From positions 64,001 to 128,000 of IMG/VR virus record IMGVR_UViG_3300022751_000016: a DNA stretch of 64,000 nucleotides. One strand, 5' to 3'. The stretch's first letter is position 1, and each line of letters starts with the position of its first letter. This DNA comes from a virus. The notes under the pieces were generated by a model. That model was not told the origin of the DNA and did not search any database. It saw only the letters and a list, made by a program, of their open reading frames with translations. The position numbers were made by a program, and so were the translations under genes. Shown piece after piece: positions 10,880 through 39,833 of the stretch.

Positions 10880-10911
10880 TTTGGAAAATAGAATGATATT
10901 AAGTATATTTG
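10880..10911 (+). promoter_or_regulatory. Canonical Bacteroidota promoter TTTG-N20-TATATTTG
   Basis: TTTG 10880-10883, TATATTTG 10904-10911; faces a non-coding region. Confidence 0.8.
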
Positions 10912-10932
10912 CAGGACATAATAGAAATACAA

Positions 10933-11036
10933 GATTTAGACTCTCACCTCTAAAATCGTAAAGATAATAAGTATAAAAACTTAGGAAACTAACGGACAGG
11001 AAAGATGGGTGAGAGCTCTTTTCGTCCGTTTTTTGT
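10933..11036 (+). ncRNA. Kissing-loop RNA element, copy 1
   Basis: Hairpin loop CTCTCACC (10941-10948) is complementary to loop GGTGAGAG (11008-11015) of a terminator-like hairpin. Confidence 0.65.
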
Positions 11037-11040
11037 TTTA

Positions 11041-11650
11041 TATGGATTCTATTTCTGCCAATTATACGTGACTTGATGTTAATATCATCGTATATCCTTC
11101 TAATTATTTTAGTCGGCGTCAAAGGGAAGAGTGAGCTATTTAATAGTTATCTACGCCTGAGTATAGGGGAGTTTTACGCATTTATGTATACCTTTATCCT
11201 GTTGGCAATTTAATTGTTGATAGAGGTCAGTTTCTCCCCACTTCACAAAGCAGATAGTTACTAAATTAAAAAGGATTTCAGAAATTCACTTCATGCGATG
11301 GAGTAAACAAAATAACTGAGGATTCTCAAAAGGAGTCTAACTCTGAGGGCTTGGGGGCTTGCCCTATATTTATCTTAATTAATTATATCGCAATTAGTAA
11401 ATTGTTTTCACTGCAAAGCTTTAGTATGTCGCCAAAACTATAGTTCGGCGGGAAAATATATAGATAAGTAAAAGCTTATAAAAATGGCGACAGAATATAC
11501 TACTTGCAGTGGATAGGTAATTAACAGTTTTGAATGTATTACTTAGTAGTTTATGTTGTGGCGGATTTATAGATGAAGATAGGAACGTATAAAACTGAAA
11601 GTATTAATTCCGCGCCACAAAAGAATATAAGTAAACAATCACAAACTGTA
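11041..11650 (+). ncRNA. Putative large structured ncRNA (or structured origin)
   Basis: ORF-free; many nested long-range helices (see findings). Confidence 0.55.
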
Positions 11651-11712
11651 AAAAAACATTATATGAATTAGCGGGTATTTTAAGGGAAACTATGTTAAAT
11701 TTTAAAATTTCT

Positions 11713-11743
11713 CTTGTTTAATCATAAATAAGGTGTATATTTG
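11713..11743 (+). promoter_or_regulatory. Promoter CTTG-N19-TATATTTG
   Basis: Consensus match upstream of ORF 11767. Confidence 0.75.
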
Positions 11744-11766
11744 TAAAGAATTAAAAAAGTAAAATT

Positions 11767-11982
11767 ATGAAAATAGTAAATATATTGATTGCTTTTATAG
11801 TAACTGCTTCAATTTGCGCAATAGTAGATTTAATTATAAACTATGTAATGGCAAATACCGTTGAGTGGAAAGTCTTAAGTGAGCAATTGTGGAAAATACT
11901 AATAAGTATAGGTAGAATAAGTTTAGGCTATTTTTACGGAAGTATAATTTTTAAAGAGATTTTAAAACAGTTAGAGAACTGA
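11767..11982 (+). CDS. Small membrane protein
   Basis: Two hydrophobic segments. Confidence 0.7.
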   Translation: MKIVNILIAFIVTASICAIVDLIINYVMANTVEWKVLSEQLWKILISIGRISLGYFYGSIIFKEILKQLEN

Positions 11983-11984
11983 TT

Positions 11985-12203
11985 ATGAGTAACACAAAAA
12001 ACATTAATGTAATCACTATAAATAGTCCATTCTACTTCTTATTTGCAATAGGAACAGCAATGATAGGATATAATATTCATGACAGCATATTTTGGTCTTT
12101 TATTGACTTCTTTTTCGCGCCGTTAGTTTGGATTAAGTGGTTAATAATGCACCAAGTAAATTTATCAATAATAAAAGAGACGTTTAATTTTTTCTTAAAA
12201 TAA
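11985..12203 (+). CDS. Small membrane protein
   Basis: Hydrophobic and aromatic-rich. Confidence 0.7.
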   Translation: MSNTKNINVITINSPFYFLFAIGTAMIGYNIHDSIFWSFIDFFFAPLVWIKWLIMHQVNLSIIKETFNFFLK

Positions 12204-12359
12204 AATTATGAAATACTATTATTTAGCAGTCACTATAATTATAGTATCTGTATTAGCATCATTATGTTATTCGGACTATTTAAAATCGAGCAAAACAGAG
12301 AGAGAGAGAACAGGAAATAAAAAAGTTAGAATTATTAATTAAACTGAAAGAACAAAACA

Positions 12360-12665
12360 ATGAATAAATCTTTTAAAAATAAAAGTCAAATAGCGTTAGA
12401 CGATAAACACTTCTTAATTCCAGACTCAGATTCAGGAATCATCCTTGTATTCCACGAAATTCGCCAAAGAAAAAAGAAAGACAGTGAAGAACTAGAAGAC
12501 TACGAATTCACTGACCGTTGGTATTTCACAAGAATCGTACAAAGTCTAAGAAAATACACAGAATTAACAGAGAACAGTTGTAAGACTATTGATGAAATTC
12601 TAGAAAAAGTGAAGTATAATACAGAACTTTTAGATAGGTTAGATGTTGAATTTAAACAGTTTTAA
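12360..12665 (+). CDS. Hypothetical protein
   Basis: ORF track. Confidence 0.75.
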   Translation: MNKSFKNKSQIALDDKHFLIPDSDSGIILVFHEIRQRKKKDSEELEDYEFTDRWYFTRIVQSLRKYTELTENSCKTIDEILEKVKYNTELLDRLDVEFKQF

Positions 12666-12668
12666 TTT

Positions 12669-13064
12669 ATGTCTGCACCACATATACATGCAATATCCTC
12701 AGCTAAAAAGTTTGGAGGTGTTATGGAAGATTATATGAATATACATGCTAAGATGGATTGTTCTAAAGCTTACTTTCCAGATAATAGGCATAGAGTGCTA
12801 ACACATACAATGTTTTGGGTTAAAGAAGTGATGATTCCTTTGTTTGGAGAAATAATAACAAATTCTGATAATAAAATAGTAAGTGTAAAAGATGTTTGTG
12901 AACAACACATTTTAGAAGACTATAGACAGAAATTTATACCAACTCCACAGGATTTTATTGAAAATATGGAATTTAAAACTTGGATGCAAAATGGGAGAGG
13001 TGTGCCAAGTTCCTCAAAATTATTATATAAACAAAAAGATTATAAACAATTAATAGAGAATTAA
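12669..13064 (+). CDS. DUF6915-like His-rich protein
   Basis: P..HA.SSAKKFGG..EDY..IH..MD.SK...D.RHR..TH ... EQHILED. Confidence 0.75.
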   Translation: MSAPHIHAISSAKKFGGVMEDYMNIHAKMDCSKAYFPDNRHRVLTHTMFWVKEVMIPLFGEIITNSDNKIVSVKDVCEQHILEDYRQKFIPTPQDFIENMEFKTWMQNGRGVPSSSKLLYKQKDYKQLIEN

Positions 13065-13066
13065 AA

Positions 13067-13582
13067 ATGAGTGTACTAGAAGGAATTAAAGAAAAAATAG
13101 AAGCTATTAAAAAGCAAAAAGAAGAATTAACTTCACAGTTAAAAAAAGATTTTGCACCAATGTTACAACCGTTGTTTGAAAAATCAAATGGTAAAATTAC
13201 ATCTATTGGATGGACTCAATATACACCATATTTTATGGATGGAGACGAGTGTGTATTTTCTACAAATTTTGATATAGATTATGGATTAAGAATCAATGGA
13301 GAGACTCTAGAAGAAAGCGAAAATGTTTTTGGAAGTTCTTTATATGCTTTGAAAAAATATGGTACAGATGACTATGAATCTTGGATTAGTAAATATCCAG
13401 AGGACAAAATAAAAGAAGAAACGAGGGAATCGGATTTGGCTTTATATTCACTTATAACTGAATTTCAGGAACTTCTAATCTCTATTGAAGATGAATTTTA
13501 CAGAGATTTATTTGGAGACCACGTAGAAGTAACTGTAAAAGCAGATGGGACAGTAGAAACAGAAGAATATGACCACGATTAA
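13067..13582 (+). CDS. Hypothetical protein (WTQYTPYF.DG..C.F ... FGDH ... EEYDHD)
   Basis: Conserved-looking motif set. Confidence 0.8.
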   Translation: MSVLEGIKEKIEAIKKQKEELTSQLKKDFAPMLQPLFEKSNGKITSIGWTQYTPYFMDGDECVFSTNFDIDYGLRINGETLEESENVFGSSLYALKKYGTDDYESWISKYPEDKIKEETRESDLALYSLITEFQELLISIEDEFYRDLFGDHVEVTVKADGTVETEEYDHD

Positions 13583-13584
13583 TT

Positions 13585-13830
13585 ATGAAAATACTATACG
13601 ACAAATATAAGTTCAAGTCAGTGAAATATGACGGAGGAATAGAAGGAATTATTGTGGGTTTTTGCGACAATAATTTGATTGCCACATGTGAAGAAGGTTG
13701 TAACCCCTCATATTCATTTCGCCGCCTAGATAAAAACACATTCATTGACGAAAAATATCGTGACACTAAGTACAGATACTTCTATGTAACTGAATCAACA
13801 ATGCTTAAACAACACCCAAAGATTAAATGA
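13585..13830 (+). CDS. Hypothetical protein
   Basis: Packed ORF. Confidence 0.7.
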   Translation: MKILYDKYKFKSVKYDGGIEGIIVGFCDNNLIATCEEGCNPSYSFRRLDKNTFIDEKYRDTKYRYFYVTESTMLKQHPKIK

Positions 13831-14231
13831 AACTAACTCCTTACCAAGCACACCACCAAAAAAATCCTGAAAAAGAAACAAGAGTAGAATATTTTACTTT
13901 AAAAAAAGTAAGTAAGGAAACTGGAATTTCAATTTCGATTTTAAATAAGAGAGGTTGGAAATTAGGGTTGAAAGGGAAATGCTTGGGAAAAGGGAGTACT
14001 ATGTATTATACAAAAACTCAAATAAATAAGATGCTGGCTTACGTCAAAACTCCTAAATCCATAGATTCCTGCAAAATAACTATAATAGAATTATATCAGA
14101 AAAATCAAATAGGAAGGGATATTGCTAAGTACATGAAAATAAGTGTAAAAACTACCTATGATTGTATTAGAGAGTATAATGAAACAGGCTGTGTGACAGT
14201 AGAAAGTAAAATAAATAAATTATATGAATGA
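13827..14231 (+). CDS. Helix-turn-helix DNA-binding protein (two HTH-like segments)
   Basis: TLKKVSKETGISISIL and GRDIAKYMKISVKTTY. Confidence 0.6.
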   Translation: MKLTPYQAHHQKNPEKETRVEYFTLKKVSKETGISISILNKRGWKLGLKGKCLGKGSTMYYTKTQINKMLAYVKTPKSIDSCKITIIELYQKNQIGRDIAKYMKISVKTTYDCIREYNETGCVTVESKINKLYE

Positions 14232-14577
14232 CACAATGGCTCTGCTAGACACAGTAATTACACTTCAAATGTCGGCAGAGAATTTAGATAGGCTACAACG
14301 AACACCATTCAACAAACAAAAAATAAAAACATTAATAAAACAACTGTTAAAAGAAGTTGACCCAATAGTACAAAAGAATTACAATAAGATTTTCGGTATA
14401 GATGCGGAAACAACACTTTCAATTATTTCAGAATATGAGAGACATGTTAAATACTTGGCTCCTCTGGATATCCCTGATAAGATAGCAAATTGTCAATTCA
14501 CAGAAGCGTGGAATAAGGATAGAAAGACAATTGAAAGTACCATGCATAGGATTATTAATAAGCCCTCACAAAAATAG
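14224..14577 (+). CDS. Hypothetical protein
   Basis: Overlapping packed ORF. Confidence 0.75.
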   Translation: MNDTMALLDTVITLQMSAENLDRLQRTPFNKQKIKTLIKQLLKEVDPIVQKNYNKIFGIDAETTLSIISEYERHVKYLAPLDIPDKIANCQFTEAWNKDRKTIESTMHRIINKPSQK

Positions 14578-14612
14578 TTGAATATTTCCTTTTTTATTAC
14601 GTTTATTTGGTC

Positions 14613-14620
14613 TATCTTTG
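14613..14620 (+). promoter_or_regulatory. -7 promoter element TATCTTTG
   Basis: Consensus match in intergenic gap. Confidence 0.6.
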
Positions 14621-14654
14621 TCGGACAATAGAGCGAGAGCGTAAAATTAGAATT

Positions 14655-14828
14655 ATGATAACACACAAATACTTCATAGCTTGCATAAAAATAGCAGGTG
14701 TAGATTATTACAAATTAATGAGAGAAACTTTTTTCTGTGGATTTTATTTGTGGCAAAAAGAATTTAAAGAAGAGTACTCAACAGTAGAAGAGATAAGAAC
14801 AGAAATAGAGAGATTGGAGAATGATTAA
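14655..14828 (+). CDS. Hypothetical protein (start corrected to ATG 14655)
   Basis: TTG start at 14607 would overlap the promoter. Confidence 0.65.
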   Translation: MITHKYFIACIKIAGVDYYKLMRETFFCGFYLWQKEFKEEYSTVEEIRTEIERLEND

Positions 14829-14840
14829 AAAGCGTAACAC

Positions 14841-15101
14841 ATGAAAAACATAACAACATTTTTACTCGGAGGACTAGTATTTATATCCTTCGCAGCGGCA
14901 ACAACAAATATAATGACTGTTAAGCCTGCAACTCCTAAACAAACATTAGTTAAAGATTTCTGGGGTGCATACGGAATTGAAAAAGAAATGCAAAAGTATA
15001 TCACTTTACAAGTAAAAGGCGGATTTATAGTGAAAGGGTTTACTCTAGACTCAGAAGAGAATGGTTATCAAAGAGGATTAGTAGTAATGGAAAAATATTA
15101 A
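14841..15101 (+). CDS. Hypothetical protein with signal peptide
   Basis: MKNITTFLLGGLVFISFAAA. Confidence 0.7.
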   Translation: MKNITTFLLGGLVFISFAAATTNIMTVKPATPKQTLVKDFWGAYGIEKEMQKYITLQVKGGFIVKGFTLDSEENGYQRGLVVMEKY

Positions 15102-15103
15102 AA

Positions 15104-15301
15104 GTGGAAAATAAAAACTTAAACAAGAGACCCTTTAATTCAGAATCCGAAGCTCGTGCAGAACTAGAACGTATACTAACAACTCAGCACAAGCCATGGT
15201 CAAAAAATGATGTAAAACCTTGTCGATATTATCACGATAAAGAATTAGATAAATGGTTTTTAACAAGCAATATAACAATAGTAGAATACCCTAAAAAATA
15301 A
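15104..15301 (+). CDS. Hypothetical protein
   Basis: GTG-start packed ORF. Confidence 0.65.
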   Translation: MENKNLNKRPFNSESEARAELERILTTQHKPWSKNDVKPCRYYHDKELDKWFLTSNITIVEYPKK

Positions 15302-15321
15302 ACAATTAAATATAAAACAAC

Positions 15322-15597
15322 ATGAACAGAAAAGAGTTATTATCAGCGAATTTAAGTGAAGAGAAAAATGTAACAACAGTAGTTACTAACACATTAGCAA
15401 AAGATGCTAAATTTATTAAGAAAGCTAAAAGAGATTTAGAAGACCAAATCGAAGATGCAGAAGAAAAACTAGAGGAAAGACTATCTTCTAACACGCCTTT
15501 AGATAAATCTGTAGTAGAAGTACTTTATGATAGTTTAATAGGATTAAAAGCTACTTTAGCTTTATATGAAAAATTTGAGAAAGAAGTATTAGCCTAA
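15322..15597 (+). CDS. Coiled-coil hypothetical protein
   Basis: E/K-rich heptads. Confidence 0.75.
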   Translation: MNRKELLSANLSEEKNVTTVVTNTLAKDAKFIKKAKRDLEDQIEDAEEKLEERLSSNTPLDKSVVEVLYDSLIGLKATLALYEKFEKEVLA

Positions 15598-15601
15598 CAC
15601 T

Positions 15602-16378
15602 ATGAGTAGAAGAAAAACTCCATTATTAAGTATACCTTCCTTGGCAGAAATGCAACAGGGAGGAGTATATAAATTTACAAACTCTATTAATGATTTTACC
15701 TATATTGGGAGTTGTAAAAAGTTCTCAGATAGATTAGCGGGGCATATTTGCGATTCTAAACGAGGCAAAGCAAATAGATATTTAATAGAGTTTGTAAATG
15801 ATTTTGGATGGGAAACTATTTCTTTTGAAATATTGGAAGTAGTTGAAGATTTCTCTTTATTAAAAACGCGGGAGAATCATTGGATAGGACTTTTTGATTT
15901 TAATTTATTATGGAATTGTGCACCAAAAGCAGACACTTTAGTAGGGACTAAGATGCCTTTGACACATAAAATTAAGAGTTCTGAAAGAATGAAAGGTAAT
16001 ACACTTAGCGTAGGTTATGTTCACTCTAAGGAGAAGGGTATAAAATGCGCAAAGTATTGGGAAGAGCACCCAAAAGAGAAGGAAGAAATGATTTCTAAAA
16101 ATAAAGAATCGCAGTCTAAGGTAGATAGGAGTTCTTGGGAAAAAGGAAAGATTATAGAAGTTTATTATGAAAAAGTCTTGATTGATACAGTAGAGGGATT
16201 AAAAAATGTAGAGACAAAATACAATTTAGGACATACCTATGCGAGTAAAATGTTACAAGGTAAGAAACCACCATTGAGGGGTTACTTTTTAAAAACAATA
16301 GGTTCTTATTTTATATCTGATAAAGTCTATATCAGAAGATATTTAAATGGAAAAGAAATAATAGAAAATAAATTATGA
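15602..16378 (+). CDS. GIY-YIG homing endonuclease with NUMOD-type DNA-binding repeats
   Basis: GVYKFTN...YIGS...R..H, RE, N; H..KSSERMKG and HSKE repeats. Confidence 0.88.
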   Translation: MSRRKTPLLSIPSLAEMQQGGVYKFTNSINDFTYIGSCKKFSDRLAGHICDSKRGKANRYLIEFVNDFGWETISFEILEVVEDFSLLKTRENHWIGLFDFNLLWNCAPKADTLVGTKMPLTHKIKSSERMKGNTLSVGYVHSKEKGIKCAKYWEEHPKEKEEMISKNKESQSKVDRSSWEKGKIIEVYYEKVLIDTVEGLKNVETKYNLGHTYASKMLQGKKPPLRGYFLKTIGSYFISDKVYIRRYLNGKEIIENKL

Positions 16379-17951: not shown

Positions 17952-17955
17952 GCTT

Positions 17956-28456: not shown

Positions 28457-28642
28457 ATGAAAAAACAGAAATATATTCATTACAATAACAAAAAATCCTA
28501 CCTAGTCACAGATAAGTGTTTGATACAAGTGGACGATGAATGGAAGGAAGCTGTTTTATATAAGGAGGAGTTTGGCAGTCAATTATTTTGCCGAGAAGAA
28601 AAGGAGTTTTTAGAAAAATTTAAATTGGCTGAACATGAATAA
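28457..28642 (+). CDS. DUF1653-like small SH3-fold protein (start corrected to ATG 28457)
   Basis: Y.H....Y.V ... VLY ... FCR...EF.EKF. Confidence 0.65.
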   Translation: MKKQKYIHYNNKKSYLVTDKCLIQVDDEWKEAVLYKEEFGSQLFCREEKEFLEKFKLAEHE

Positions 28643-28731: not shown

Positions 28732-30756
28732 ATGGATTTAGATAATATTTACTGTGGTGATTTGGAATCTGATAATTTAGCAGAGGATGTTACTAAAATA
28801 CACGTACTAAGTATTGCTTGGAAAAGTGATGGAGTGTGGAAAATAAAATCTACACCTAACTATGATGATATGCGAAAATTATTATCTGACCCTACAAAAG
28901 TTATTGCAATACATAATGGAATTAGATTCGATGGTAGAGTTTTAGAGCAGATACTTGGTATAGAGATAAAAGCAACTATTATTGATACACTAGCTTTAGC
29001 TTGGTACATAGATTGTGCTAGAGGTAAGGAAGGTAAAAAGTATGGTTTAGCGTACTACGGGGAAGATACTTTTAATACTCCAAAGCCAAAGATTGATGAT
29101 TGGGAGAATCTAACCTATGAAGAGTATAAATTTCGTTGTGAGGAGGATACCAAAATAACCTATCAACTTTGGGAGTATCTACTCTTAAAATTAAGAGCTG
29201 TTTATGACAACGACGAAGATATTGTCAGAGTTATAAAATACCTTAATTTTATCATGCTTTGCGCCAGAAAACAAGAAGAACAAAAGATTCAAGTTGATTT
29301 AGAAAAATTAGAAAGTAATTTAAAATATTTTGAGGCATTAAAAGAAGAAAAAATTAAACAGCTTATTGAGGCAATGCCTAAAATTCCTAACAAAATAACA
29401 AAAAACAGACCTAGTACTTATCATAAAAAAGATGGTTCTCTTTCTAAAGCTGCCGAAGAGTGGGAAAATATGCTAACTTCTTGTAACTTACCAAAAGATT
29501 ATAGTGGAAGTATAGATGTCATAAAATCTTATGAATTAGGAAACCCAAACTCAGTGAAACAAAAAAAAGATTGGTTGTATAGCTTAGGTTGGATTCCTCA
29601 AACATTTGTGCACAATAGAGACAAGCAGACAGGAGATGTAAAGAAAGTGGAACAAATACTTACAGAAGAGAAAATGCTTTGCCCAAGCGTCTTAAAACTA
29701 GTTGAAAAAGAACCTGCAATTGAATTGCTAGATGGACTTTCAGTTCTTACCCATAGAATTGGAATATTTAAGGGATTGCAGAAAGCAGTTGATAAAAATG
29801 GATTTGTTATACAAGGTTTAATGCAGTTGGCGGTAAGTCTTCGCTGGCAACACGCCCTGATTGTAAACTATCCTCGCGTTACAGGTAAAGGAGACATCAG
29901 GGATGGTAAATGGATTAGGGAGTGTCTAATAGCTGGGAAAGGTTATAAATTTGTACAGAGTGACCTTAGTGGAATTGAATCAAGGACATCCGACCACTAC
30001 ACGTTCAATCTGAATAGAGAACTAATCGAAGAAACGCAGAGACCATTTTTTGACCCACACACAAAAATTTCTGTTGTTAGTAACTTAATGACGGAAGATG
30101 AAGAAATATGGTTTAAGTGGAAGAAGGAGAATAAAGAGAGGAAAGAAAAGGGGATAGAAGAGGACTTACCTCCTGAAGCTTTTGGGACACCCTCAGATAA
30201 TTTTTACATACTCCAAGATTTAGATAAGGATGAAAGTAAGAAGTTAATGAACAGATTAAAAGAGGCTAGGAGTAAAGGAAAGACTTGTAACTACGCATCA
30301 CTCTACTTAGTTGGCAGTCAGACACTTGCTAGAAATTTAAACATTTCTAAGAAAGAAGCACAAGGACTAATAGATGCATATTGGAAAATTCATTGGGCAG
30401 TAAAAAAAGCTACGGAAAGTTTTGACATAAAAAAAGTAGGGGATGAGCTCTGGATATTAAATCCTATATCGAGATTCAGACATAATTTGCGTTTTGAAAA
30501 GGACTCCTTCTCGGTTGTAAACCAGTCGAGTGCAGTTTATTGCTTTAACATGTGGCTATATAACATAACTAGACTTGGAGCTTTTCCCATATTGCAGACC
30601 CATGATGACGAATTACTAAGATGTAAGGAAGAAGAAGTTGATAAGTACGTAGCTATAACCAATAAGGCAATGGAAAACTTGAATAAGCAGTTAAAGTTAA
30701 ATGTAGAATTAGCTTGTGAGGTACAAGTTGGTGATAACTTTGCAGAGACACACTAA
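28732..30756 (+). CDS. polA: Family A DNA polymerase with 3'-5' exonuclease (T7-like, Tyr at E. coli 762 equivalent)
   Basis: DLE, HNGIRFD, IDTL exo motifs; motif A DLSGIESR, motif B RSKGKTCNY, motif C THDD. Confidence 0.95.
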   Translation: MDLDNIYCGDLESDNLAEDVTKIHVLSIAWKSDGVWKIKSTPNYDDMRKLLSDPTKVIAIHNGIRFDGRVLEQILGIEIKATIIDTLALAWYIDCARGKEGKKYGLAYYGEDTFNTPKPKIDDWENLTYEEYKFRCEEDTKITYQLWEYLLLKLRAVYDNDEDIVRVIKYLNFIMLCARKQEEQKIQVDLEKLESNLKYFEALKEEKIKQLIEAMPKIPNKITKNRPSTYHKKDGSLSKAAEEWENMLTSCNLPKDYSGSIDVIKSYELGNPNSVKQKKDWLYSLGWIPQTFVHNRDKQTGDVKKVEQILTEEKMLCPSVLKLVEKEPAIELLDGLSVLTHRIGIFKGLQKAVDKNGFVIQGLMQLAVSLRWQHALIVNYPRVTGKGDIRDGKWIRECLIAGKGYKFVQSDLSGIESRTSDHYTFNLNRELIEETQRPFFDPHTKISVVSNLMTEDEEIWFKWKKENKERKEKGIEEDLPPEAFGTPSDNFYILQDLDKDESKKLMNRLKEARSKGKTCNYASLYLVGSQTLARNLNISKKEAQGLIDAYWKIHWAVKKATESFDIKKVGDELWILNPISRFRHNLRFEKDSFSVVNQSSAVYCFNMWLYNITRLGAFPILQTHDDELLRCKEEEVDKYVAITNKAMENLNKQLKLNVELACEVQVGDNFAETH

Positions 30757-30779
30757 AAAGTTAAGAAAATCTTAAATGA

Positions 30780-30811
30780 TTAGGAAGTGTAAAAATAAAG
30801 TTGTATATTAG
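30780..30811 (+). promoter_or_regulatory. Variant promoter TTAG-N20-TATATTAG
   Basis: Near-consensus, ahead of kissing-loop copy 2. Confidence 0.55.
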
Positions 30812-30815
30812 CGTT

Positions 30816-30923
30816 TTAAATTTCTTGGCGGAGATTTTAATAGCAAAATTTTAAAATAAAAAACATAAATAAGAGACACCTGTATGATGCTACCGCCATA
30901 GCTGATTATAGGTGTTCTCGTTT
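30816..30923 (+). ncRNA. Kissing-loop RNA element, copy 2 (5' leader of LAGLIDADG gene)
   Basis: Loop TGGCGG (30826-30831) is complementary to loop CCGCCA (30893-30898). Confidence 0.65.
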
Positions 30924-30934
30924 ATAAAAATAAA

Positions 30935-31978
30935 ATGGAAATAACAAACCAACAAAAACAAGTATTACTAAGCGGTCTTTTAGGAGATGGAAGTATTAAA
31001 AGGTCACATGTGTCTTACAACTGTATGTATGAAGAATATATGCAATTTAAAAGAAGTTTACTAGGAAATTTAGCCAAATCAGAGGTTATTGAATCGGATA
31101 ATTTAGGTTACAAAAAAGGTTCTAAAATTTACACTTTTTCTGGTAAATTTAATTCATATGCAGATTCTCTAGTTAATAAAGATTTATCTGAAATGATTCA
31201 AGACTTAGATGAATTGGGACTGGCTCTCTGGGTTATGGATGATGGCTCACTTCACAAGAAGAATTATTTCTACAATATCAACACACATTCGTTTCCAAAA
31301 GAAGTTCAGGAAAAAGTATTAATTCCCGCCTTAAATAAATTTGGAATATATCCTAAAACAATGGTTGAAAATAAACCTGATGGAAGACAGTTTCATTATT
31401 TGTATATTTCAAAATGGAATGGTGCAATGATTATTTCTCGAATACTTAGAAACTATGCTGTAAATTGTTATAAATACAAACTCATACCTAAAGAAATTGA
31501 AGACGCTTACTTTAAACTAGATTTAGAAGTTTTCAATGCACTACCAACAGAGTATGCAAAAACAAGTTATTTATTAAAACAGAACGGAGTTCGACAAATG
31601 AGTGATTTACTAATGAATAATACAAAAGGTAAAGAGTACACTTACGAAGAATTAGACGAGTTATGGAATAAAACTTTTCCAAAAACAGATTGTGTCTTTT
31701 CTATATATGATTTTAAGAAAACAAAAGAAGGTGAGGATGAAAATGTCTTAATACCACAAGTTAATTTTTTAGATGAAAATCCTATTGTTAAGGGGTCTTT
31801 TAAATTGTCTTTTAACACTTGGAAATATGGTGAAACTTTTTATTCTATCGAGGGAAGGTCACTTACTTGGAAAACGCTTCTAGATATTATAGATAAACAT
31901 GGAGATGGACATCACATATTTTTAGAATTAATTGAAATTAAGAATAACAACGAAGTGTTTGTATTTTTAGGCAGTTAG
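30935..31978 (+). CDS. LAGLIDADG homing endonuclease with unrelated C-terminal extension
   Basis: LLSGLLGDGSI and GLALWVMDDGS. Confidence 0.88.
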   Translation: MEITNQQKQVLLSGLLGDGSIKRSHVSYNCMYEEYMQFKRSLLGNLAKSEVIESDNLGYKKGSKIYTFSGKFNSYADSLVNKDLSEMIQDLDELGLALWVMDDGSLHKKNYFYNINTHSFPKEVQEKVLIPALNKFGIYPKTMVENKPDGRQFHYLYISKWNGAMIISRILRNYAVNCYKYKLIPKEIEDAYFKLDLEVFNALPTEYAKTSYLLKQNGVRQMSDLLMNNTKGKEYTYEELDELWNKTFPKTDCVFSIYDFKKTKEGEDENVLIPQVNFLDENPIVKGSFKLSFNTWKYGETFYSIEGRSLTWKTLLDIIDKHGDGHHIFLELIEIKNNNEVFVFLGS

Positions 31979-31983
31979 TATAA

Positions 31984-32009
31984 AGAGTCCTCTTAACCGA
32001 GGATTTTTT
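31984..32009 (+). terminator. Intrinsic terminator
   Basis: AGTCCTC/GAGGATT hairpin plus T-run. Confidence 0.75.
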
Positions 32010-32033
32010 ATTTTTAAAATAATCACCCAATTC

Positions 32034-32065
32034 TTTGTTTATATCATATGTATTGCTTATCTTTG
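32034..32065 (+). promoter_or_regulatory. Promoter TTTG-N20-TATCTTTG
   Basis: Consensus match. Confidence 0.8.
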
Positions 32066-32109
32066 CAGTGTAAATCACTGTTTTTTAACCCTTTTACCGC
32101 GAAATTAAT

Positions 32110-32337
32110 ATGGAAAGACTATTTAGAACCGTTAAAATATCAGAAAGACTGCCTGACATGGGTAAACGAGTTATGTTTTTAGATGAGGGCTATAAAAATG
32201 AGATAATGCACGATTATCATCCTCACGAAAAAATAGAAATAAAGAAAAATAAATTTATACAAATGTTGGATTGTCATTTTGTAACAGAGTATTTAAAAAA
32301 TAATTATACTCATTGGCTTGAAGAAATTGAACAATAA
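32110..32337 (+). CDS. DUF551-like protein
   Basis: VKISERLP ... THWLE. Confidence 0.65.
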   Translation: MERLFRTVKISERLPDMGKRVMFLDEGYKNEIMHDYHPHEKIEIKKNKFIQMLDCHFVTEYLKNNYTHWLEEIEQ

Positions 32338-32341
32338 AAAT

Positions 32342-32683
32342 ATGAAAATAGAATTAAATCAAGAAGTAATAGTAGTAGGTATCGGAAATAATGCCAGATA
32401 TAAAACACCAATCCACGAAGGTAAAGTTAGTAAAATAGGAAGGAAATGGTTTGAGGTAGATACATTTGACAGAGAGAAATTCTCTTTGGAAGATGGAAGA
32501 AGTGATGGTAAAGGTTATATGCCTGAGTGGCAAGTTTTTAATTCCTTAGATGATTACAATGAATACTTAAATAAACCTAAACTAATTAATGAAATTACCA
32601 GAGATTTGAATAAGTTACTGAATTACAAACAGTTAGTTGAAGTTCAATTATTGATTAAATCTTTTAATGCGGAAAATAAATAA
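32342..32683 (+). CDS. Hypothetical beta-barrel protein (VSKIGRKWF)
   Basis: ATG 32342. Confidence 0.7.
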   Translation: MKIELNQEVIVVGIGNNARYKTPIHEGKVSKIGRKWFEVDTFDREKFSLEDGRSDGKGYMPEWQVFNSLDDYNEYLNKPKLINEITRDLNKLLNYKQLVEVQLLIKSFNAENK

Positions 32684-33332: not shown

Positions 33333-33469
33333 TAATTTAGAAGACTTTCAAGGATATATAGACTTAGACTTGATAACAGAAGAACGCTGGAGAATATGGG
33401 CAGAAATTTGCAAACATATTCCTAAAGGAACAGAACAATCAGATTTAATACATAAAATAATATTTGAAA

Positions 33470-33895: not shown

Positions 33896-34036
33896 AACTT
33901 ATGAATAATGAAACTAAAAAGATAGCTATTAAATTTGCAAATTGGCTAAGAGAAGTTGACGTTCACGAAAGAGCTGAAGAATGGTTTGGATTTTCCGATG
34001 AAGATATGTTTGAATACTTTTTAAAAAACGTAAACT

Positions 34037-34252
34037 ATGACAACTAACATCACATATTTAGACACACCTCTAGTAGTAGACTATTATTTAGAGGGAACTT
34101 ATAGAGCAGCAACTTATTTAAATCCAGAGGAAGTGCCAGAAATTATCATCCGTACAATTTGTGCTGAAGATAGTAGTGTGGATTTGCAGAATATTTTAGA
34201 TTGGTTGGATATAGAGAGAATAATAGAAATGATTGAAGAGAAAGAGTTATGA
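34037..34252 (+). CDS. Hypothetical protein
   Basis: ORF track. Confidence 0.7.
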   Translation: MTTNITYLDTPLVVDYYLEGTYRAATYLNPEEVPEIIIRTICAEDSSVDLQNILDWLDIERIIEMIEEKEL

Positions 34253-34396
34253 CAACAGAATTAGAGAAATTAGAGATAATGAGAGACGTATTAGTTATTT
34301 TTTCTACGATACTTATTACAGCTTGCCTTATAATGGGAATTTCCTTAATATTTATAACACATAAAATAAGTAACACGTATAAAGAAAATCTAACAC

Positions 34397-34783
34397 ATGA
34401 AAAAATTAATCTATAATTCAGTGAAATGTTTATCTTGTGGAGAAACTTTAGTTAGTTATCACGTACATGATTATAAAGTTTGTGGCTGTGAGAATGAAGC
34501 TATGGTAGATGGTGGGAACAGTTACGGTAGATATGGAGGTAAGAATTTAGATTTAGTAGAAACTAATTACTTATATGATGACGCTCCTTTTGAAGTTATA
34601 AGAGAACATATCTTTAGGGGAAGTCGGGGCAAAGATGGTAAACAACCGTTAAAATATATTAAACTTAGTGAAATTGATGAGGATTATTTACAAGCTCTTA
34701 TTGAGTATGAAGAACTTTATCGTCCTAGGAACCCACAATTAACTTATTACAGGCAAGAACAGAAATATAGAATTAAATTATGA
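34397..34783 (+). CDS. Zn-binding phage protein (N..KC..CG...S..VHD...C.C....VDGG)
   Basis: Recognisable Cys/His motif. Confidence 0.8.
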   Translation: MKKLIYNSVKCLSCGETLVSYHVHDYKVCGCENEAMVDGGNSYGRYGGKNLDLVETNYLYDDAPFEVIREHIFRGSRGKDGKQPLKYIKLSEIDEDYLQALIEYEELYRPRNPQLTYYRQEQKYRIKL

Positions 34784-34998
34784 CAGCTATTATAACTCCT
34801 AAATTTAGTGTGTTCTACGATATAAGTAAAGAAGATAAATTTTTTGCCAATAGTAAGTGGGTATTTGATTTTCCTAAAAGTTGTTTTGGTCGAAATTTTG
34901 ATTCTTATTTATTAGCTTTTGGCGCGGAAAATATTAGAGATATAAATGATATAATAGACTATTTAGAAATGCATAATGTAAAAAGAATTTATGAATAA
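34780..34998 (+). CDS. Hypothetical protein
   Basis: Packed ORF. Confidence 0.65.
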   Translation: MTAIITPKFSVFYDISKEDKFFANSKWVFDFPKSCFGRNFDSYLLAFGAENIRDINDIIDYLEMHNVKRIYE

Positions 34999-35332
34999 AT
35001 ACTGTGAAGATTGTAAAAATAAGGCAGTAATGCATGCATTTTCATCAGGTTGGTGTGAGATATGTAGTGTTGAAGTTACTACTGGACACATTCCTGTGGA
35101 TAAGATTTGTTTAAACTGTGCCACAAGAGAAGATAAGTGTGAAAGTTGCGGAAAAGAAATGAAAACAGAAAAAGAAAGTTTAGATATTCCCGACATAAGA
35201 AATAAACTAACTCCTATAACTAATATGATTGAATTATTTGAGAGAGGTGAGTACACTTATATTAAAAATAAAGGTTTAGATGAAGTTAAAAAGAGTATTA
35301 ATTATTTAGCGCAAAGAGATGTCTATAAATAA
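34991..35332 (+). CDS. Four-CxxC Zn-finger protein with HisKA-like C-terminus
   Basis: CEDC, CEIC, CLNC, CESC; PDIRNKLTPI. Confidence 0.7.
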   Translation: MNKYCEDCKNKAVMHAFSSGWCEICSVEVTTGHIPVDKICLNCATREDKCESCGKEMKTEKESLDIPDIRNKLTPITNMIELFERGEYTYIKNKGLDEVKKSINYLAQRDVYK

Positions 35333-36245
35333 TTATATGGATTTACAATTTCAGTGGTATTCTAACGGGATAAAGACAATTCGTTCATCTGGAATGATAT
35401 CTCTTAGACAACTGATTAATGCAATTATATCGCCTAAACCTGAAATGATTGAGGCTTTTGGATTAATTAAAGAAGCTGGTTTGTCAGGTAATAAAGAGGA
35501 AAAAGACCGCCTGAAATCAGAAAAACTGTTCTTTACCACTCCTTCTGCAATATTTGACCCTATAAGAAATTATGACTCAGTGAAGGAGTTTCTTCCAATA
35601 GGCGTGTATGAATATGACGATATAGAGTATTGCGAAGAGCTTAGAGATTATATATTTGAAAAGAGAAAAGACTGTATTTTTGCTTTTTGTTCGCCGTCTT
35701 TCACTGGATGTAAATTCATTTTTTTATTTGGAGAAACTCCAACTAGTATAGCACATTATAAATCTTTATGGTTTGGAATAGCTCACGATTTAGATAAGTT
35801 TATCAATTTAGATTTAAGTAATGAACGGTGTACTCAACCTTTGTACAACAGCTACGACCCTAATGCAAAATTCAGAGCAGACGCTGTACCTGCCGAAATT
35901 AGAAGAGGCTATAAAGAAAACTCTTTTGTCCCTTTTGTTGGTGAAATTGAAATTCCAGAAGAAGTAAGTGAAGAAGATAAAGAACAATGTTTTAAACTAA
36001 TTTCTCATCTTATAGACAGGGTAGTAGACCAAGGGCACAATCAGGTAATTAGTAGTTCATTTCTGTCTGCTGGGCTATGTGCATTCTACGGAATAGAAGT
36101 GGATGATATGTGGAATTTACTTGAAGAAAGGATTAGAGAAAATAGTTATCTAGCAAAAGGAACTGATGGGTATTTAACTAGTGCTAAGACAATGTTTAAT
36201 AAGGGATTAAATTTTCCAAAAGAACTAAATAAAGATGGAAAGTAA
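35319..36245 (+). CDS. BT4734/VirE_N-type primase-polymerase
   Basis: K..L.F.TPS..F, Y.YDD, FCSPSFTGCK, D.S, SYDP; no other primase in window. Confidence 0.7.
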   Translation: MSINNYMDLQFQWYSNGIKTIRSSGMISLRQLINAIISPKPEMIEAFGLIKEAGLSGNKEEKDRLKSEKLFFTTPSAIFDPIRNYDSVKEFLPIGVYEYDDIEYCEELRDYIFEKRKDCIFAFCSPSFTGCKFIFLFGETPTSIAHYKSLWFGIAHDLDKFINLDLSNERCTQPLYNSYDPNAKFRADAVPAEIRRGYKENSFVPFVGEIEIPEEVSEEDKEQCFKLISHLIDRVVDQGHNQVISSSFLSAGLCAFYGIEVDDMWNLLEERIRENSYLAKGTDGYLTSAKTMFNKGLNFPKELNKDGK

Positions 36246-36336
36246 AGAACAAAAATTAGTTAGCTTGTTACAACCTAAAGACTATAAGAGCAAAATAAAA
36301 TTATATTGCTTAGATAGTAAATTTAATGTGCAAAAG

Positions 36337-36368
36337 TTTGGCAGTTTAATTATAAAACCTTATATTTG
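36337..36368 (+). promoter_or_regulatory. Promoter TTTG-N20-TATATTTG
   Basis: Consensus match. Confidence 0.8.
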
Positions 36369-36395
36369 TCAGGTAGAAATTAAAGAGAAACAATT

Positions 36396-36602
36396 ATGAC
36401 AAATTACGATATTACAATAGGGTATAAAGCAGTTATAACTGTAAATATCAATGCAAATTCAGAACAGGAAGCTAAAGAAAAAGCAATTAATGAATTCGTT
36501 AAAAATAGAAATAAAATGATTAGTGGTAAGTTAGTATTACAAGATGATACTTATCAAGTTAGTGGTGTTCTCAATATGGACGAAACATGGAAAATGTTAT
36601 GA
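36396..36602 (+). CDS. Hypothetical protein (V.I.A.SE.EA.EKA)
   Basis: First gene after promoter. Confidence 0.75.
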   Translation: MTNYDITIGYKAVITVNINANSEQEAKEKAINEFVKNRNKMISGKLVLQDDTYQVSGVLNMDETWKML

Positions 36603-36772
36603 AATACAGTTTATTTGCAATAGAAAAGAAGTTTGAAACAGCTTATAGTGTTATTGGAACATACCTTACTGAGAGTTGCTTTGAATACTTAGGCACGTTT
36701 GATACTTTAGAAGACGCACAAAAAGACCAAAAGGAATATGATATTGAAACATTAATTTTACCGAGTTATTAA
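36599..36772 (+). CDS. Hypothetical protein
   Basis: ATGA overlap. Confidence 0.65.
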   Translation: MKYSLFAIEKKFETAYSVIGTYLTESCFEYLGTFDTLEDAQKDQKEYDIETLILPSY

Positions 36773-36774
36773 TT

Positions 36775-37041
36775 ATGAGAGTATACGAAATAAAAGAAAG
36801 TGGAGAAACAACTCACGTAGCTTTTGATGGCACTAAGAAGGAGTGTAAAGATTGGTATGTAAGTGAAACAGATTGTGATGTAAATGAAATTGATTCTATT
36901 ACTGTTTTGCCGCGAAAAAAGTGGAAAGAAATAACTGTTAAATTTGAAGAGTGGGGAATAGAACCTTTCACTACAACAATAGAAGAACTGATGGTAGGAT
37001 GTAAGAATAATGAAATAATTTGTAGCACTTTATTTTTATGA
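36775..37041 (+). CDS. Hypothetical protein
   Basis: Packed ORF. Confidence 0.7.
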   Translation: MRVYEIKESGETTHVAFDGTKKECKDWYVSETDCDVNEIDSITVLPRKKWKEITVKFEEWGIEPFTTTIEELMVGCKNNEIICSTLFL

Positions 37042-37649
37042 AAGACAAATATTCAAAACTGTATTGGTTTGTCAAAGATTTAGAATGGATGCGAGTTTAT
37101 TTCTCTCCTTTTAAATTCTTTTTGCCAAAATTATATGTGGGTAAAACTAAGATAGGCGTGCCCTATTTCCTACCTCGTAAATTTATAAAAGCCACTCCTG
37201 AATTAGCGCATAAAGCCGCTTTAGAGTTTATAAAAGAAACAGAGTCTTTTAATGAAAGAAATCCTGATTACAAACGTAGAGTTAGAGACTATCAAGACGT
37301 TTACCAAGAAAAATTAAAATGCTCTTATCCAATACCTCTAAAAATAGGATTTAGTTCTTGTAGTCTCGGCTGGAAGACTAAGTATGACTCGTACAGGCAC
37401 GAATGGAATCCTGTGTGGAGTTTTGTTTGTTTCGGTTATCAAATAGCTTTGATATTCCGTCCTGAACATGATATGCACTATTGGGAATGTTGGCTTGCGT
37501 ATAATCTAGAAACAGATAAATCAAAATCGGCGAAAGAAAGAATAGAAGAAGCAAAAGAGAAATTTCCTTGTCGTTGGAGTTATTATTCAGGAGATGAAAA
37601 GATTACTACGAATTATTGGGATTTAATATTAAAATCAAGCTATAATTAA
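37038..37649 (+). CDS. Hypothetical protein (Trp/aromatic-rich)
   Basis: ORF track. Confidence 0.8.
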   Translation: MKDKYSKLYWFVKDLEWMRVYFSPFKFFLPKLYVGKTKIGVPYFLPRKFIKATPELAHKAALEFIKETESFNERNPDYKRRVRDYQDVYQEKLKCSYPIPLKIGFSSCSLGWKTKYDSYRHEWNPVWSFVCFGYQIALIFRPEHDMHYWECWLAYNLETDKSKSAKERIEEAKEKFPCRWSYYSGDEKITTNYWDLILKSSYN

Positions 37650-37944
37650 ATGGACGATAAAGCAATAAAATGGTGGTACACACTGCCAATAAAAGAAAGG
37701 ATTAAATTAGCTGATGAAGAGCATTGGACAACTTTAAAACTAATAACAGAGCATCAAATAAAAATGATTTATTTAGATAAATTTTACGGCTACTAATGAA
37801 AAAACCAGAAAGATTAATTGAAAAAACAGGTTCTAGTGAAAGTTATTCAGTAGAAAATCCTGATTTTTATGATGAAGATGGGAACTTTAGAAAATATAGA
37901 AATCCTATGAGTCATTTAAAACCTAAAAAGAAAAAACGTAAGAA

Positions 37945-38247
37945 ATGAAACAAAAATTAGCACAAAAAATGTTAGATGAGAAGTTGGACTTCTTACCTCT
38001 AAAAGAAAGTATAGAATTATATGATTCTGGAGTTAAATTAGAAACTAGATTTAGTTGGGTTGTACGCACAGAAGAATTAGAAAATAACGGCTATGATATG
38101 ACTACAGAAGAGTTGTTAGAGTCTATTGAGGAGCTTTACGGCTTAGATAATGATTACGCTTTAACTATAGGAGACCGTTATGATGAATTTGACGAGTTTA
38201 CTTTAGAACTTTGTCCTGCACCTACGTATATTGACTTAATTAAATAA
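37945..38247 (+). CDS. Acidic hypothetical protein
   Basis: ORF track. Confidence 0.75.
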   Translation: MKQKLAQKMLDEKLDFLPLKESIELYDSGVKLETRFSWVVRTEELENNGYDMTTEELLESIEELYGLDNDYALTIGDRYDEFDEFTLELCPAPTYIDLIK

Positions 38248-38253
38248 AAATAG

Positions 38254-39534
38254 ATGGAAATAAACAAAACAAGGTTATTAGAAATTTACGCTCACGAAGA
38301 AACTATTACTGCTGCGGCTAAAAAATTAGCAGAAGAAACAAATCAGGAGTTTAATGATTCTTTTCGAAGACGATGTAGTACTTTGATAAACAGAGAGAAC
38401 GTTGATAGTGATTTGGAGAATGAGGTTAAATCTGATAGCAACAACTATTCTAACGATAAAGAAAAATCCCCTAAAGGGTTTACAGCTATTGGTGATGATA
38501 ATAAGTTAATGAATATCGAACAGTACTGCCAACACTATGGTTTAGATGTAAATAAGATTAGGAGTTATAAATTAATTTCTCACAGTGGTATTCCCTTCTA
38601 TAATGTGGTTTTCTATACCGCAGAAGAGGAGGCTGTCTCTAATATAAATGAGCATTTAGATGAAATTATCTCTAAATACATACAACCTGTTAAGTCAGAA
38701 ATTACACAATATAGTTTCCATGCTTCGGATTGGTTTGACCGTTTAGTATTTTCTGATGTCCATATTGCTATGGATGTTAATGGTGGAGGCGACCCCCTTT
38801 ATGACGGAAAATGGGACAAAGCGGAATTATTCAGAAGATTGGAAATAATGATTCAACATACTAAAAATCATCAAAAATCAAACTTATTAGTCATAAGTAA
38901 TCTGGGGGATTATATGGATGGATTAGGTGGTGAGACAACTAGAAAAGGACATGAGTTACCTCAAAATATGAATGATAAAGAAGCTTTTGACTTAGGTATA
39001 GAATTTAGTTTAAAACTAGTTGATTCTCTAGTTGACGATTATGAAGAAATAAGATATAATTTTTTAGTAGAGGATAATCATTCGGGAATATTCAGTTATT
39101 TTGTGAGTCAAGCTATAAAAGGTATTTTAGAAGTAAGATATCCACAAAAAGTGTCTGTAAAAACCCAAAAGAAATTTATAGACCATTTCAAAATTGGTAA
39201 GCACACTATAGTAGAAACTCACGGTAAAGATTCAATAGCTTTAAAATTTGGCTTTCGCCCACATTTAGATGATAAACAAGCTAAAAAAATAGACCACTAC
39301 TTAAAAGAGAACGGCTTATATGATGGTAATTTTATAGAGTTTTCTAAGGGAGATTCACATTTGGCTCTTTTTGATGAGAGTACCAGTACAGATTTTCACT
39401 ATTATAATTATCCTGCTTTTTCACCTCCTTCAAATTGGGTAAAATCTAATTTCTCCAACACAAAATCAGGATTTAGATTTTTCAATATTAAAAAAGATGA
39501 AAATATAAAAAATCATTTTCCTTATTGGTTTTAA
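38254..39534 (+). CDS. Calcineurin-like metallophosphoesterase with N-terminal extension
   Basis: SDVH, LGDYMDG, DNH, THG, GDSH. Confidence 0.85.
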   Translation: MEINKTRLLEIYAHEETITAAAKKLAEETNQEFNDSFRRRCSTLINRENVDSDLENEVKSDSNNYSNDKEKSPKGFTAIGDDNKLMNIEQYCQHYGLDVNKIRSYKLISHSGIPFYNVVFYTAEEEAVSNINEHLDEIISKYIQPVKSEITQYSFHASDWFDRLVFSDVHIAMDVNGGGDPLYDGKWDKAELFRRLEIMIQHTKNHQKSNLLVISNLGDYMDGLGGETTRKGHELPQNMNDKEAFDLGIEFSLKLVDSLVDDYEEIRYNFLVEDNHSGIFSYFVSQAIKGILEVRYPQKVSVKTQKKFIDHFKIGKHTIVETHGKDSIALKFGFRPHLDDKQAKKIDHYLKENGLYDGNFIEFSKGDSHLALFDESTSTDFHYYNYPAFSPPSNWVKSNFSNTKSGFRFFNIKKDENIKNHFPYWF

Positions 39535-39554
39535 TTACACAAAAAGTAATCAAT

Positions 39555-39585
39555 TTTGTAGTGTGAAGATAGTGTTGTATATTGC
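39555..39585 (+). promoter_or_regulatory. Variant promoter TTTG-N19-TATATTGC
   Basis: Near-consensus, ahead of kissing-loop copy 3. Confidence 0.55.
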
Positions 39586-39590
39586 ACTTG

Positions 39591-39699
39591 TTAATTTCTT
39601 GCTGCGAACACTAAATTAATTTATAAAGTATTATTTTTTTTGAGAAGCTTCTTTCATTAACTATTCGCAGTAGTTTTTGTTAGAAGTTTTCTTATTTTT
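39591..39699 (+). ncRNA. Kissing-loop RNA element, copy 3
   Basis: Loop CTGCGAA (39602-39608) is complementary to loop TTCGCAG (39664-39670). Confidence 0.65.
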
Positions 39700-39707
39700 A
39701 AATAGTT

Positions 39708-39833
39708 ATGTGTCAAACAAAAGTATGTACAAAATGTGGGATAGATAAATCCACCTCAGAATTCAGTTACCATAATACAGCTAAGGATAACTTATATAAA
39801 AAATGTATCTACTTTATAAACAATGAGGACTGA
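39708..39833 (+). pseudogene. Truncated endonuclease remnant (Zn-finger N-terminus MCQTKVCTKCGIDKSTSEF...)
   Basis: 41-aa ORF translated by hand; K.C.KCG..K...EF pattern typical of phage HNH/endonuclease VII N-termini, no nuclease domain follows. Confidence 0.6.

Follow-up and report, generated by a model that had tools for sequence, protein, structure and literature searches.

A promoter-linked RNA leader, in which two hairpins carry apical loops that are exact reverse complements of one another, recurs in the genome of an uncultured phage and of its relatives. Three copies lie in the window, the 64,000-nucleotide (nt) stretch of DNA analysed here, which is bases 64001-128000 of the 142,450-bp IMG/VR virus record IMGVR_UViG_3300022751_000016 (30.8% GC, completeness estimated at 100%). 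With the copies found elsewhere the leader set comprises 15 instances with 12 independent loop pairs. The loops are GC-rich, 6-8 nt long and exactly complementary in all 15, and the 12 pairs all differ from one another. The two-hairpin structure is kept on the gene strand, its loops and stems covary, it is tied to free-standing homing-endonuclease genes, and it is exchanged as a module between related phages. The three window copies lie where an earlier note, made from the sequence alone, had placed them, and a check of the sequence returned all of its loop words.

Distribution of the leader

Of the 15 leaders, the 142-kb phage genome contains five, two related IMG/VR phages together have another five, and the remaining five come from metagenome contigs. 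The relatives retrieved were phages with a related polymerase, together with metagenome polymerase loci. Several instances were located without the loops, either through synteny or with a covariance model that does not encode them. Scans of the same genome beyond the window found two more copies. The copy at 49.7 kb has the loops GTACGAAC/GTTCGTAC and a 365-amino-acid (aa) HNH endonuclease behind it (phrog_374, E = 1e-48). The copy at 28.9 kb, with the loops GTGGAAAG/CTTTCCAC, is followed by a 300-aa protein of a phage helix-turn-helix (HTH) family.

Two covariance models were built from hairpin 1 (H1) and hairpin 2 (H2) only, with the loop information left out. The first recovered copy 2 of the window, which was absent from its seed. 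It also found a new copy in G002 (minus strand, 55.8 kb; loops GGTAGGA/TCCTACC) before a NUMOD4+HNH_3 gene, and one in G004 at 33.8 kb with the loops GTAGCTGC/GCAGCTAC. The second model recovered the 28.9-kb copy and, among the metagenome polymerase loci, detected leaders in L136 (loops TGGCGG/CCGCCA, before a GIY-YIG gene), L138 (loops ATACGAGC/GCTCGTAT, before a MUG113/T5orf172-like gene) and L178 (loops GGTCGGA/TCCGACC, before a LAGLIDADG gene). A leader resembling copy 1 is present in G004, where the loops are CCACCAC/GTGGTGG and the gene behind is a homologue of the 28.9-kb HTH protein (27% identity, E = 2e-27). The same architecture is seen in L006, with the loops ACGCAAC/GTTGCGT before an orthologue of the LAGLIDADG gene of the window (51% identical), and in L004, with GTGCGAG/CTCGCAC before an HNH gene (phrog_953, E = 6e-60).

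One of the G004 copies (L095; 33.6-33.85 kb, minus strand) has a terminator hairpin upstream in place of a recognisable -33/-7 promoter. Between this leader and the next gene, which encodes 395 aa of unknown function, lie a further 110 nt or so of non-coding sequence.

Outside this set the searches returned little. Weak model matches in coding regions, which lack the promoter and AUG context, showed no loop complementarity and provide a negative control. Farther out, in 76 polymerase loci and six phage records of more distant relatives, the covariance models gave chance-level matches only, without loop pairing. There were zero matches in the GenBank phage collection by megablast and blastn. 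A related-locus search with the LAGLIDADG protein or its alignment, and with an alignment of the HTH cargo, returned only the known G004 contig.

Covariation of loops and stems

With a plain MAFFT alignment of five leaders as its sole input, RNAalifold predicts the loop-loop helix. In that alignment 94% of the cells of the helix are paired, and six of its seven pairs have compensatory changes on both sides. None of 500 shuffles scored as high, and pairing fell to 26-50% when the partner was slid by 1-3 columns. The stems of H1 and H2 were 79% paired, compared to 38-54% when slid, and 20 of 26 pairs were compensatory; these values come from a model-fitted alignment of 11 leaders, which is biased towards the structure of the model. 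In every one of the 15 instances the loop pair is the strongest perfect inverted repeat with a separation of 35-95 nt, and the shuffle p values of the single instances are 0.009-0.11. Combined by Fisher's method, these values give p = 1e-5 for the six instances that were located blind to the loops and p = 5e-9 when all 12 independent pairs are taken.

The predicted helix, the compensatory changes, the strongest repeat and the comparison with a nested fold (see below) together support the proposal in the earlier note that selection acts on a loop-loop pseudoknot. That note had also described the copies as sharing almost no primary sequence. This was not the case: the five leaders align at 66% mean column identity with plain MAFFT and are therefore homologous.

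Generic descriptor scans of five phage genomes for hairpin pairs with complementary loops showed no enrichment over control transformations, which gave as many matches as true reverse complements did, and the motif can be neither found nor validated by such scans. Three copies picked by eye are therefore weak evidence on their own, and it is the comparative evidence that is decisive.

Architecture, strand and topology

The leader occupies about 105-130 nt between promoter and open reading frame (ORF), and the order promoter box, H1, H2, ATG is kept in 14 of the 15 instances. H1 is AU-rich and in most copies starts within a few bases of the -7 box. A single-stranded, A/U-rich linker of 20-33 nt, whose sequence is not conserved between copies, connects it to H2. 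This second hairpin is long and two-tiered, with an A-tract on its 5' side, a U-rich tail on its 3' side, and an apical loop that is often exactly 6-7 nt; in copies 2 and 3 the 3' loop word is the whole apical loop (6 and 7 nt). The tails are U-rich in all copies and vary in quality, from TTTTTTGTTTT in copy 1 and ATTTTTAAAT in copy 3 to only GTTTAT in copy 2. RNAfold returned the AT-rich H1 and the longer H2 in each window copy, as first described, with z = -1.3, -3.6 and -2.5 for copies 1, 2 and 3. Between the end of H2 and the AUG there are 11-25 nt, an A/U-rich stretch that is unpaired in all folds. The spacing, originally given as 11-15 nt, extends to about 25 nt in other copies.

Intergenic promoters in the window are of the Bacteroidota type, TTTG-N19-21-TAnnTTTG, and a scan for sigma-70 promoters and terminators was uninformative for this phage. 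As had been claimed, such a promoter was found 5' of each window copy, with the -7 boxes TATATTTG, TATATTAG and TATATTGC. The only promoter of the -33/-7 type in the leader region lies upstream of H1, and the linker has no TAnnTTTG box, although a late promoter with a phage-specific consensus is conceivable within the structure. There is no terminator between the upstream gene and the leader.

Folding favours the sense strand over its reverse complement by 5-13 kcal/mol in most copies, and in two columns of H2 the commonest pair is G-U. Both the energy gap and the G-U pairs speak for a gene-strand RNA and against a DNA cruciform. The possibility that the loops form a nested, switch-like helix in place of a kissing complex was examined and rejected, as H1 plus H2 beats the nested helix by 7-13 kcal/mol in 9 of 11 copies. 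The loops thus pair as a kissing complex on top of both hairpins and do not form an alternative fold.

Cognate loop duplexes have energies of -9.4 to -14 kcal/mol, and most non-cognate combinations are weaker than -6 kcal/mol. The idea that distinct loops keep the copies orthogonal holds only in part, because the H1 loop of copy 3 pairs with the H2 loop of the 49.7-kb copy at -9.2 kcal/mol, versus -9.4 for the cognate pair.

Genes behind the leader

The leader is tied to free-standing homing-endonuclease genes of unrelated families, as was originally suggested. LAGLIDADG genes follow it in 5 of 15 instances, HNH genes in three (plus the fragment behind copy 3), and GIY-YIG and MUG113 genes in one each. 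It is not specific to endonucleases, since a phage HTH protein (two instances) and an unknown gene of 395 aa (one) are led in the same way. Behind copy 1, the one remaining instance, nothing recognisable is found.

The gene calls of the earlier note proved sound for the LAGLIDADG gene at 30935, for the GIY-YIG gene at 15602 (E = 3e-10) and for the HNH/AP2-type gene at 45605-46345 on the minus strand, where the AP2 match is weak and phrog_374 matches across the region (E = 3e-38). The last two, at 15602 and 46345, are embedded in operons and have no leader, as noted before; the same is true of operon-embedded endonucleases in G002 (51.3 kb), L130 and L187. The ORF behind copy 3 had been called an endonuclease remnant. 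A weak PHROG match to HNH (E = 5e-4) is all that links it to an endonuclease, and it is better described as a possible fragment.

In G004 one of the HNH genes is preceded by a plain terminator-promoter. A GIY-YIG-like gene at 128.7-129.2 kb of the genome (minus strand) is preceded by a promoter and a plain 7-bp GC-rich hairpin with TTTTT, and its ATG follows 20 nt on. It amounts to the leader reduced to one hairpin, lacking H1, the kissing partner.

Exchange at the polymerase locus

The site directly 3' of the family A DNA polymerase gene is where cassettes of leader and nuclease have been gained, lost and swapped among relatives. It is empty in L003 and L005, and L126, with a polymerase 90% identical, has neither leader nor nuclease. 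The LAGLIDADG orthologue of L006 and the HNH gene of L004, each with its leader, lie at this site. Where the site is occupied, leader types and nuclease ORFs occur in different combinations. For example, the copy 2 type of leader stands before a LAGLIDADG gene in the window and L209 and before a GIY-YIG gene in L136. The L004 type is found before an HNH gene in G002, and in L206-L208 it precedes a LAGLIDADG gene of the same 90%-identity protein cluster as that of the window (96% DNA identity in the X3 contig). The claim that the leader travels with the nuclease does not hold in its simple form, since at this one site the two reassort independently.

Contigs from public runs were used for comparison of the joints alone, and stretches without cover were not interpreted. 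The soil contig X2, whose polymerase gene is almost identical, has 1305 different nt in place of 30810-32015, and the left joint falls at the end of GTTGTATATT, within the -7 box. A freshwater contig matches the window in the promoter and in the LAGLIDADG ORF, and the 117-nt leader between them is replaced. Promoter and stem-loop therefore lie at the borders of gene replacements between close relatives, which resembles the promoter/stem-loop cassettes (PeSLs) considered below. The promoter box and the stretch just before the AUG, both conserved, may serve as homology for the swapping of cargo genes.

The window copies and their surroundings

The genes of the window are short and densely packed. 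Features of the three leader copies are collected in Table 1.

Table 1. Positions of the leader copies and associated genes in the window
Feature	Position	Strand	Details
Copy 1 promoter	10880..10911	+	TTTG 10880-10883; -7 box TATATTTG 10904-10911; shared upstream element TTACAGAAAAAATAACCAA before them
Copy 1 hairpin 1	10933..10957	+	stem GATTTAGA / TCTAAAATC; 8-nt loop CTCTCACC at 10941-10948
Copy 1 hairpin 2	10992..11039	+	stem ACGGACAGGAAAGA / TCTTTTCGTCCGT; 11-nt loop includes GGTGAGAG (11008-11015); T-run 11030-11039
Copy 1 9-codon ORF MDSISANYT	11042..11071	+	ATG at 11042; followed by ~700 nt without a long ORF
Family A DNA polymerase gene	28732..30756	+	cassette hot spot directly 3'
Copy 2 promoter region	30775..30811	+	-7 box TATATTAG at 30804-30811; breakpoint in related contigs at 30809/30810
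Copy 2 hairpin 1	30818..30839	+	loop TGGCGG at 30826-30831
Copy 2 hairpin 2	30873..30925	+	outer stem GAGACACCTGTA / TATAGGTGTTCTC; inner GCTA / TAGC; 6-nt apical loop CCGCCA 30893-30898; tail GTTTAT
Copy 2 LAGLIDADG homing-endonuclease gene	30935..31978	+	ATG at 30935; PF03161, E = 1e-9; L006 orthologue 51% identical
Copy 3 promoter	39555..39585	+	TTTG 39555-39558; -7 box TATATTGC 39578-39585
Copy 3 hairpin 1	39591..39619	+	TTAATTT / AAATTAA; 15-nt loop includes CTGCGAA 39602-39608
Copy 3 hairpin 2	39642..39703	+	outer stem GAGAAGCTTCT / AGAAGTTTTCTT; inner AACTA / TAGTT; 7-nt apical loop TTCGCAG 39664-39670; tail ATTTTTAAAT
Copy 3 41-aa ORF	39708..39833	+	ATG at 39708; possible N-terminal fragment of HNH endonuclease; phrog_2255, E = 5e-4, weak

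Copy 1 lies in the largest ORF-free gap of the window (10849-11766, 918 nt), between two promoters. The ~700 nt behind it have locally GC-richer patches and no frame over 66 aa, and the stop-to-stop frames are all short. The earlier note saw a large structured region here. That candidate was rejected, as the region is no more stable than shuffles (z = -0.99) and its Rfam matches are at chance level only. For a decayed gene there was no sign either, as a tblastn search with the HTH cargo and with 12 proteins of nuclease and cargo genes returned zero matches. No homologue of the gap was found in four related phages or in GenBank phages. Another ORF-free stretch, of ~370 nt (genome 28536-28900), lies behind the strong promoter AAAGTTGTATATTTG and immediately precedes the 28.9-kb leader; the four related phages contain nothing similar to it.

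An upstream promoter element, TTACAGAAAAAATAACCAATTTG or close variants of it, recurs before several cassette promoters. It is located at 10861-10883 and 39535-39558 of the window and at 28481, 49644, 129128(-) and 430(-) of the genome. These sites include those of copies 1 and 3, of the 49.7-kb copy and of the 129.1-kb GIY-YIG-like gene.

After the LAGLIDADG gene, at 32058-32109 of the window, the promoter TATCTTTG is followed directly by a small hairpin with a T-run (CAGTGTAAATCACTG TTTTTT) and then by an ATG. L126 and L003 have a similar arrangement of promoter and hairpin behind their polymerase genes, and terminator-like hairpins close to promoters appear to be common in this phage group.

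A phage protein resembling the C-terminal part of ProQ (PF24203, E = 2e-10) is encoded two genes 3' of the LAGLIDADG cassette, at 32318-32683. ProQ/FinO-type proteins bind structured RNAs.

Relation to known systems

The earlier note did not recognise the element as a named Rfam family, and a search of Rfam release 15 (4227 families) bears this out, with no gathering-score match either in the window or in two additional genome stretches of 8 kb each. Rfam scans of the leaders by E-value gave chance-level matches only, at 12-21 bits versus cut-offs of 42-100 bits. The window also has zero tRNAs. A full-text literature search that combined kissing or loop-loop contacts with homing endonucleases returned nothing relevant.

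Fully paired kissing loops of 6-7 nt are known from ColE1 RNA I/RNA II, from TAR/TAR* and from the X-Y domain of the enterovirus 3' untranslated region, where they are intramolecular and covarying. The leader shares with these complexes the completely complementary apical loops of 6-8 nt, and in this respect it is a kissing-loop structure. The ColE1, TAR and enterovirus complexes serve plasmid copy control or RNA-virus replication, in contrast to a phage gene leader, and have no sequence relationship to it.

The lambda PR'-6S RNA-tR' unit has a terminator ~100-200 nt after the promoter, so that a short RNA is the default and the downstream genes need read-through. Read-through in lambda needs the protein Q at a DNA site, and lambda 6S is without kissing loops. 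The likeness to the leader is that of a promoter-proximal terminator unit; here no antiterminator or qut-like site has been identified.

The closest parallel in terms of cargo is found in the T4 family, where endonuclease genes (I-TevI/II/III, segB, Aeh1 mobE, T4 mobE) are limited by terminators and by hairpins close to the ribosome-binding site (RBS), and are thereby expressed weakly or late (Edgell, Gibb and Belfort 2010, PMC2988022). The T4 hairpins hide the RBS and contain a late promoter, T4 mobE has an internal terminator, and the seg43(25) hairpin abuts the RBS without covering it (PMC2988022). Both systems place a structured RNA directly before selfish nuclease genes, and the position of the seg43(25) hairpin is like that of H2. 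The leader is not a hairpin of the T4 type that sequesters the RBS, as its AUG region is free and H2 ends 11-25 nt upstream. It differs further in that its only recognisable promoter is upstream of both hairpins, and in the covarying loop-loop contact, none having been described for T4.

In T4-like phages, modular shuffling is mediated by PeSLs, which are composites of promoter and stem-loop (PMC2839356, PMC4122927). Their stem-loops are short, of the form GN-loop-CN or A3-4G3-loop-C3T3-4. As with PeSLs, a module of promoter and stem-loop borders variable genes here, and relatives differ by replacement beside it. The T4-like PeSL consensus is absent, and there is instead a Bacteroidota -33/-7 promoter with two hairpins and loop-loop pairing.

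Function of the leader

The function favoured here, with confidence that is evenly divided, is that of a promoter-proximal attenuator of the terminator type, clamped by the kissing loops. Transcription would start on the gene strand from a host-type Bacteroidota -33/-7 promoter. H2 is a putative intrinsic terminator between promoter and ORF, and most locally initiated transcripts would end there; it may also end transcripts of the upstream gene, for example that of the polymerase. The nuclease would then be encoded by read-through transcripts only. The GC-rich loop-loop helix would clamp a fold that is otherwise AU-rich and weak, and so might set the efficiency of termination, the stability of the short RNA, or both. 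The terminator-like features are the A-tract and the U-rich tail around H2, together with an unpaired AUG region. The one-hairpin leader at 129.1 kb is a simpler design of a related kind, the leader accompanies free-standing nuclease genes and is missing where the insertion is missing (L003, L005, L126), and the endonuclease genes of the T4 family provide a precedent (PMC2988022). The earlier note had suggested an attenuator or a translation timer. Because the start codon is not sequestered, control would be exerted at the level of the transcript and not by hiding the ribosome-binding region.

Several points weigh against an attenuator. Some U-tails are short (GUUUAU in copy 2 and L004, GUAUUUGU in L138), and termination could be weak or absent. 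To some degree U-richness is expected in a genome of 31% GC. A terminator could, on the face of it, work without the kissing contact. Since non-nuclease genes are also led, limiting a toxic nuclease cannot be the sole purpose, and copies 1 and 3 are without intact cargo yet have kept the structure.

A broader version of the attenuator is put forward tentatively. The leader may be a portable dosing module that consists of promoter, 5' hairpin, kissing-clamped terminator and a loop 'address' for each copy, and that provides low, context-independent expression. The loop contact would decide between termination and read-through, and the conserved ends would be a recombination landing pad for nucleases that replace one another in Bacteroidota phages.

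A post-transcriptional role, without termination, is rather unlikely. The element could be a 5' stabiliser, an RNase III-like processing site made up of the quasi-continuous stack of H1, kissing helix and H2, or a means of tuning translation through the access of ribosomes to the A/U-rich leader. H1 does start at or near the expected 5' end of the transcript, some of the U-tails are weak, and H2 stops 11-25 nt short of the AUG, much as the seg43(25) hairpin abuts the RBS without covering it (PMC2988022). However, the AUG-proximal region is unpaired in every fold, and the symmetry of A-tract and U-tract around H2 is typical of terminators.

The real product could also be a small RNA of ~110 nt, stable and held compact by its kissing loops, whose A/U-rich linker or loops act in trans, for instance on RNAs or proteins of the host or the phage. 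Lambda 6S and P4 CI RNA, both derived from leaders, provide the comparison. Many small RNAs are laid out in this way, with a promoter, a 5' hairpin, a single-stranded linker and a terminator hairpin. In copies 1 and 3 the leader persists although the cargo is missing or truncated, and the ProQ C-terminal-like protein is encoded nearby. A small RNA is nonetheless doubtful when the linker sequence differs between copies, the element always stands directly before a start codon, and the loops are already occupied by each other.

In a switch that responds to a phage or host factor, expression would be timed by an antiterminator, an RNA chaperone or another RNA that opens or locks the kissing complex. 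Analogues are Q at lambda PR'-tR' and the L5-L13 kissing loop of cobalamin riboswitches. Such a switch is improbable here: among the copies there is no conserved single-stranded sequence or pocket, and with loops that are different in every copy a common sequence-specific ligand is unlikely, even though the promoter-proximal terminator architecture is present and all copies have one promoter class with a common upstream element. Chance complementarity, or an inverted repeat that acts in the DNA as a recombination or nuclease site with no role in RNA, would agree with the unenriched generic scans and with the recombination breakpoints at cassette edges, but it is very hard to reconcile with compensatory changes in loops and both stems across 12 lineages, the sense/antisense energy asymmetry and the G-U pairs, and can be given almost no weight.

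Implications

To our knowledge, it is only in T4-type coliphages, with their single RBS-hiding hairpins, that control of the harm and the timing of free-standing homing endonucleases is known. Bacteroidota are a phylum without Shine-Dalgarno-based initiation. The leader would represent a different solution to the control of nucleases, one with covarying intramolecular kissing loops that is outside the catalogued RNA families. It is a small test case for a tertiary loop-loop contact that may tune a terminator or the lifetime of an RNA. It is also a marker for mobile nuclease cassettes in metagenomic phages, and the mosaics of leader and ORF at one locus are direct evidence for how such cassettes are exchanged. 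As a compact promoter-leader module with programmable loop pairs, it could serve as an expression part for Bacteroidota.

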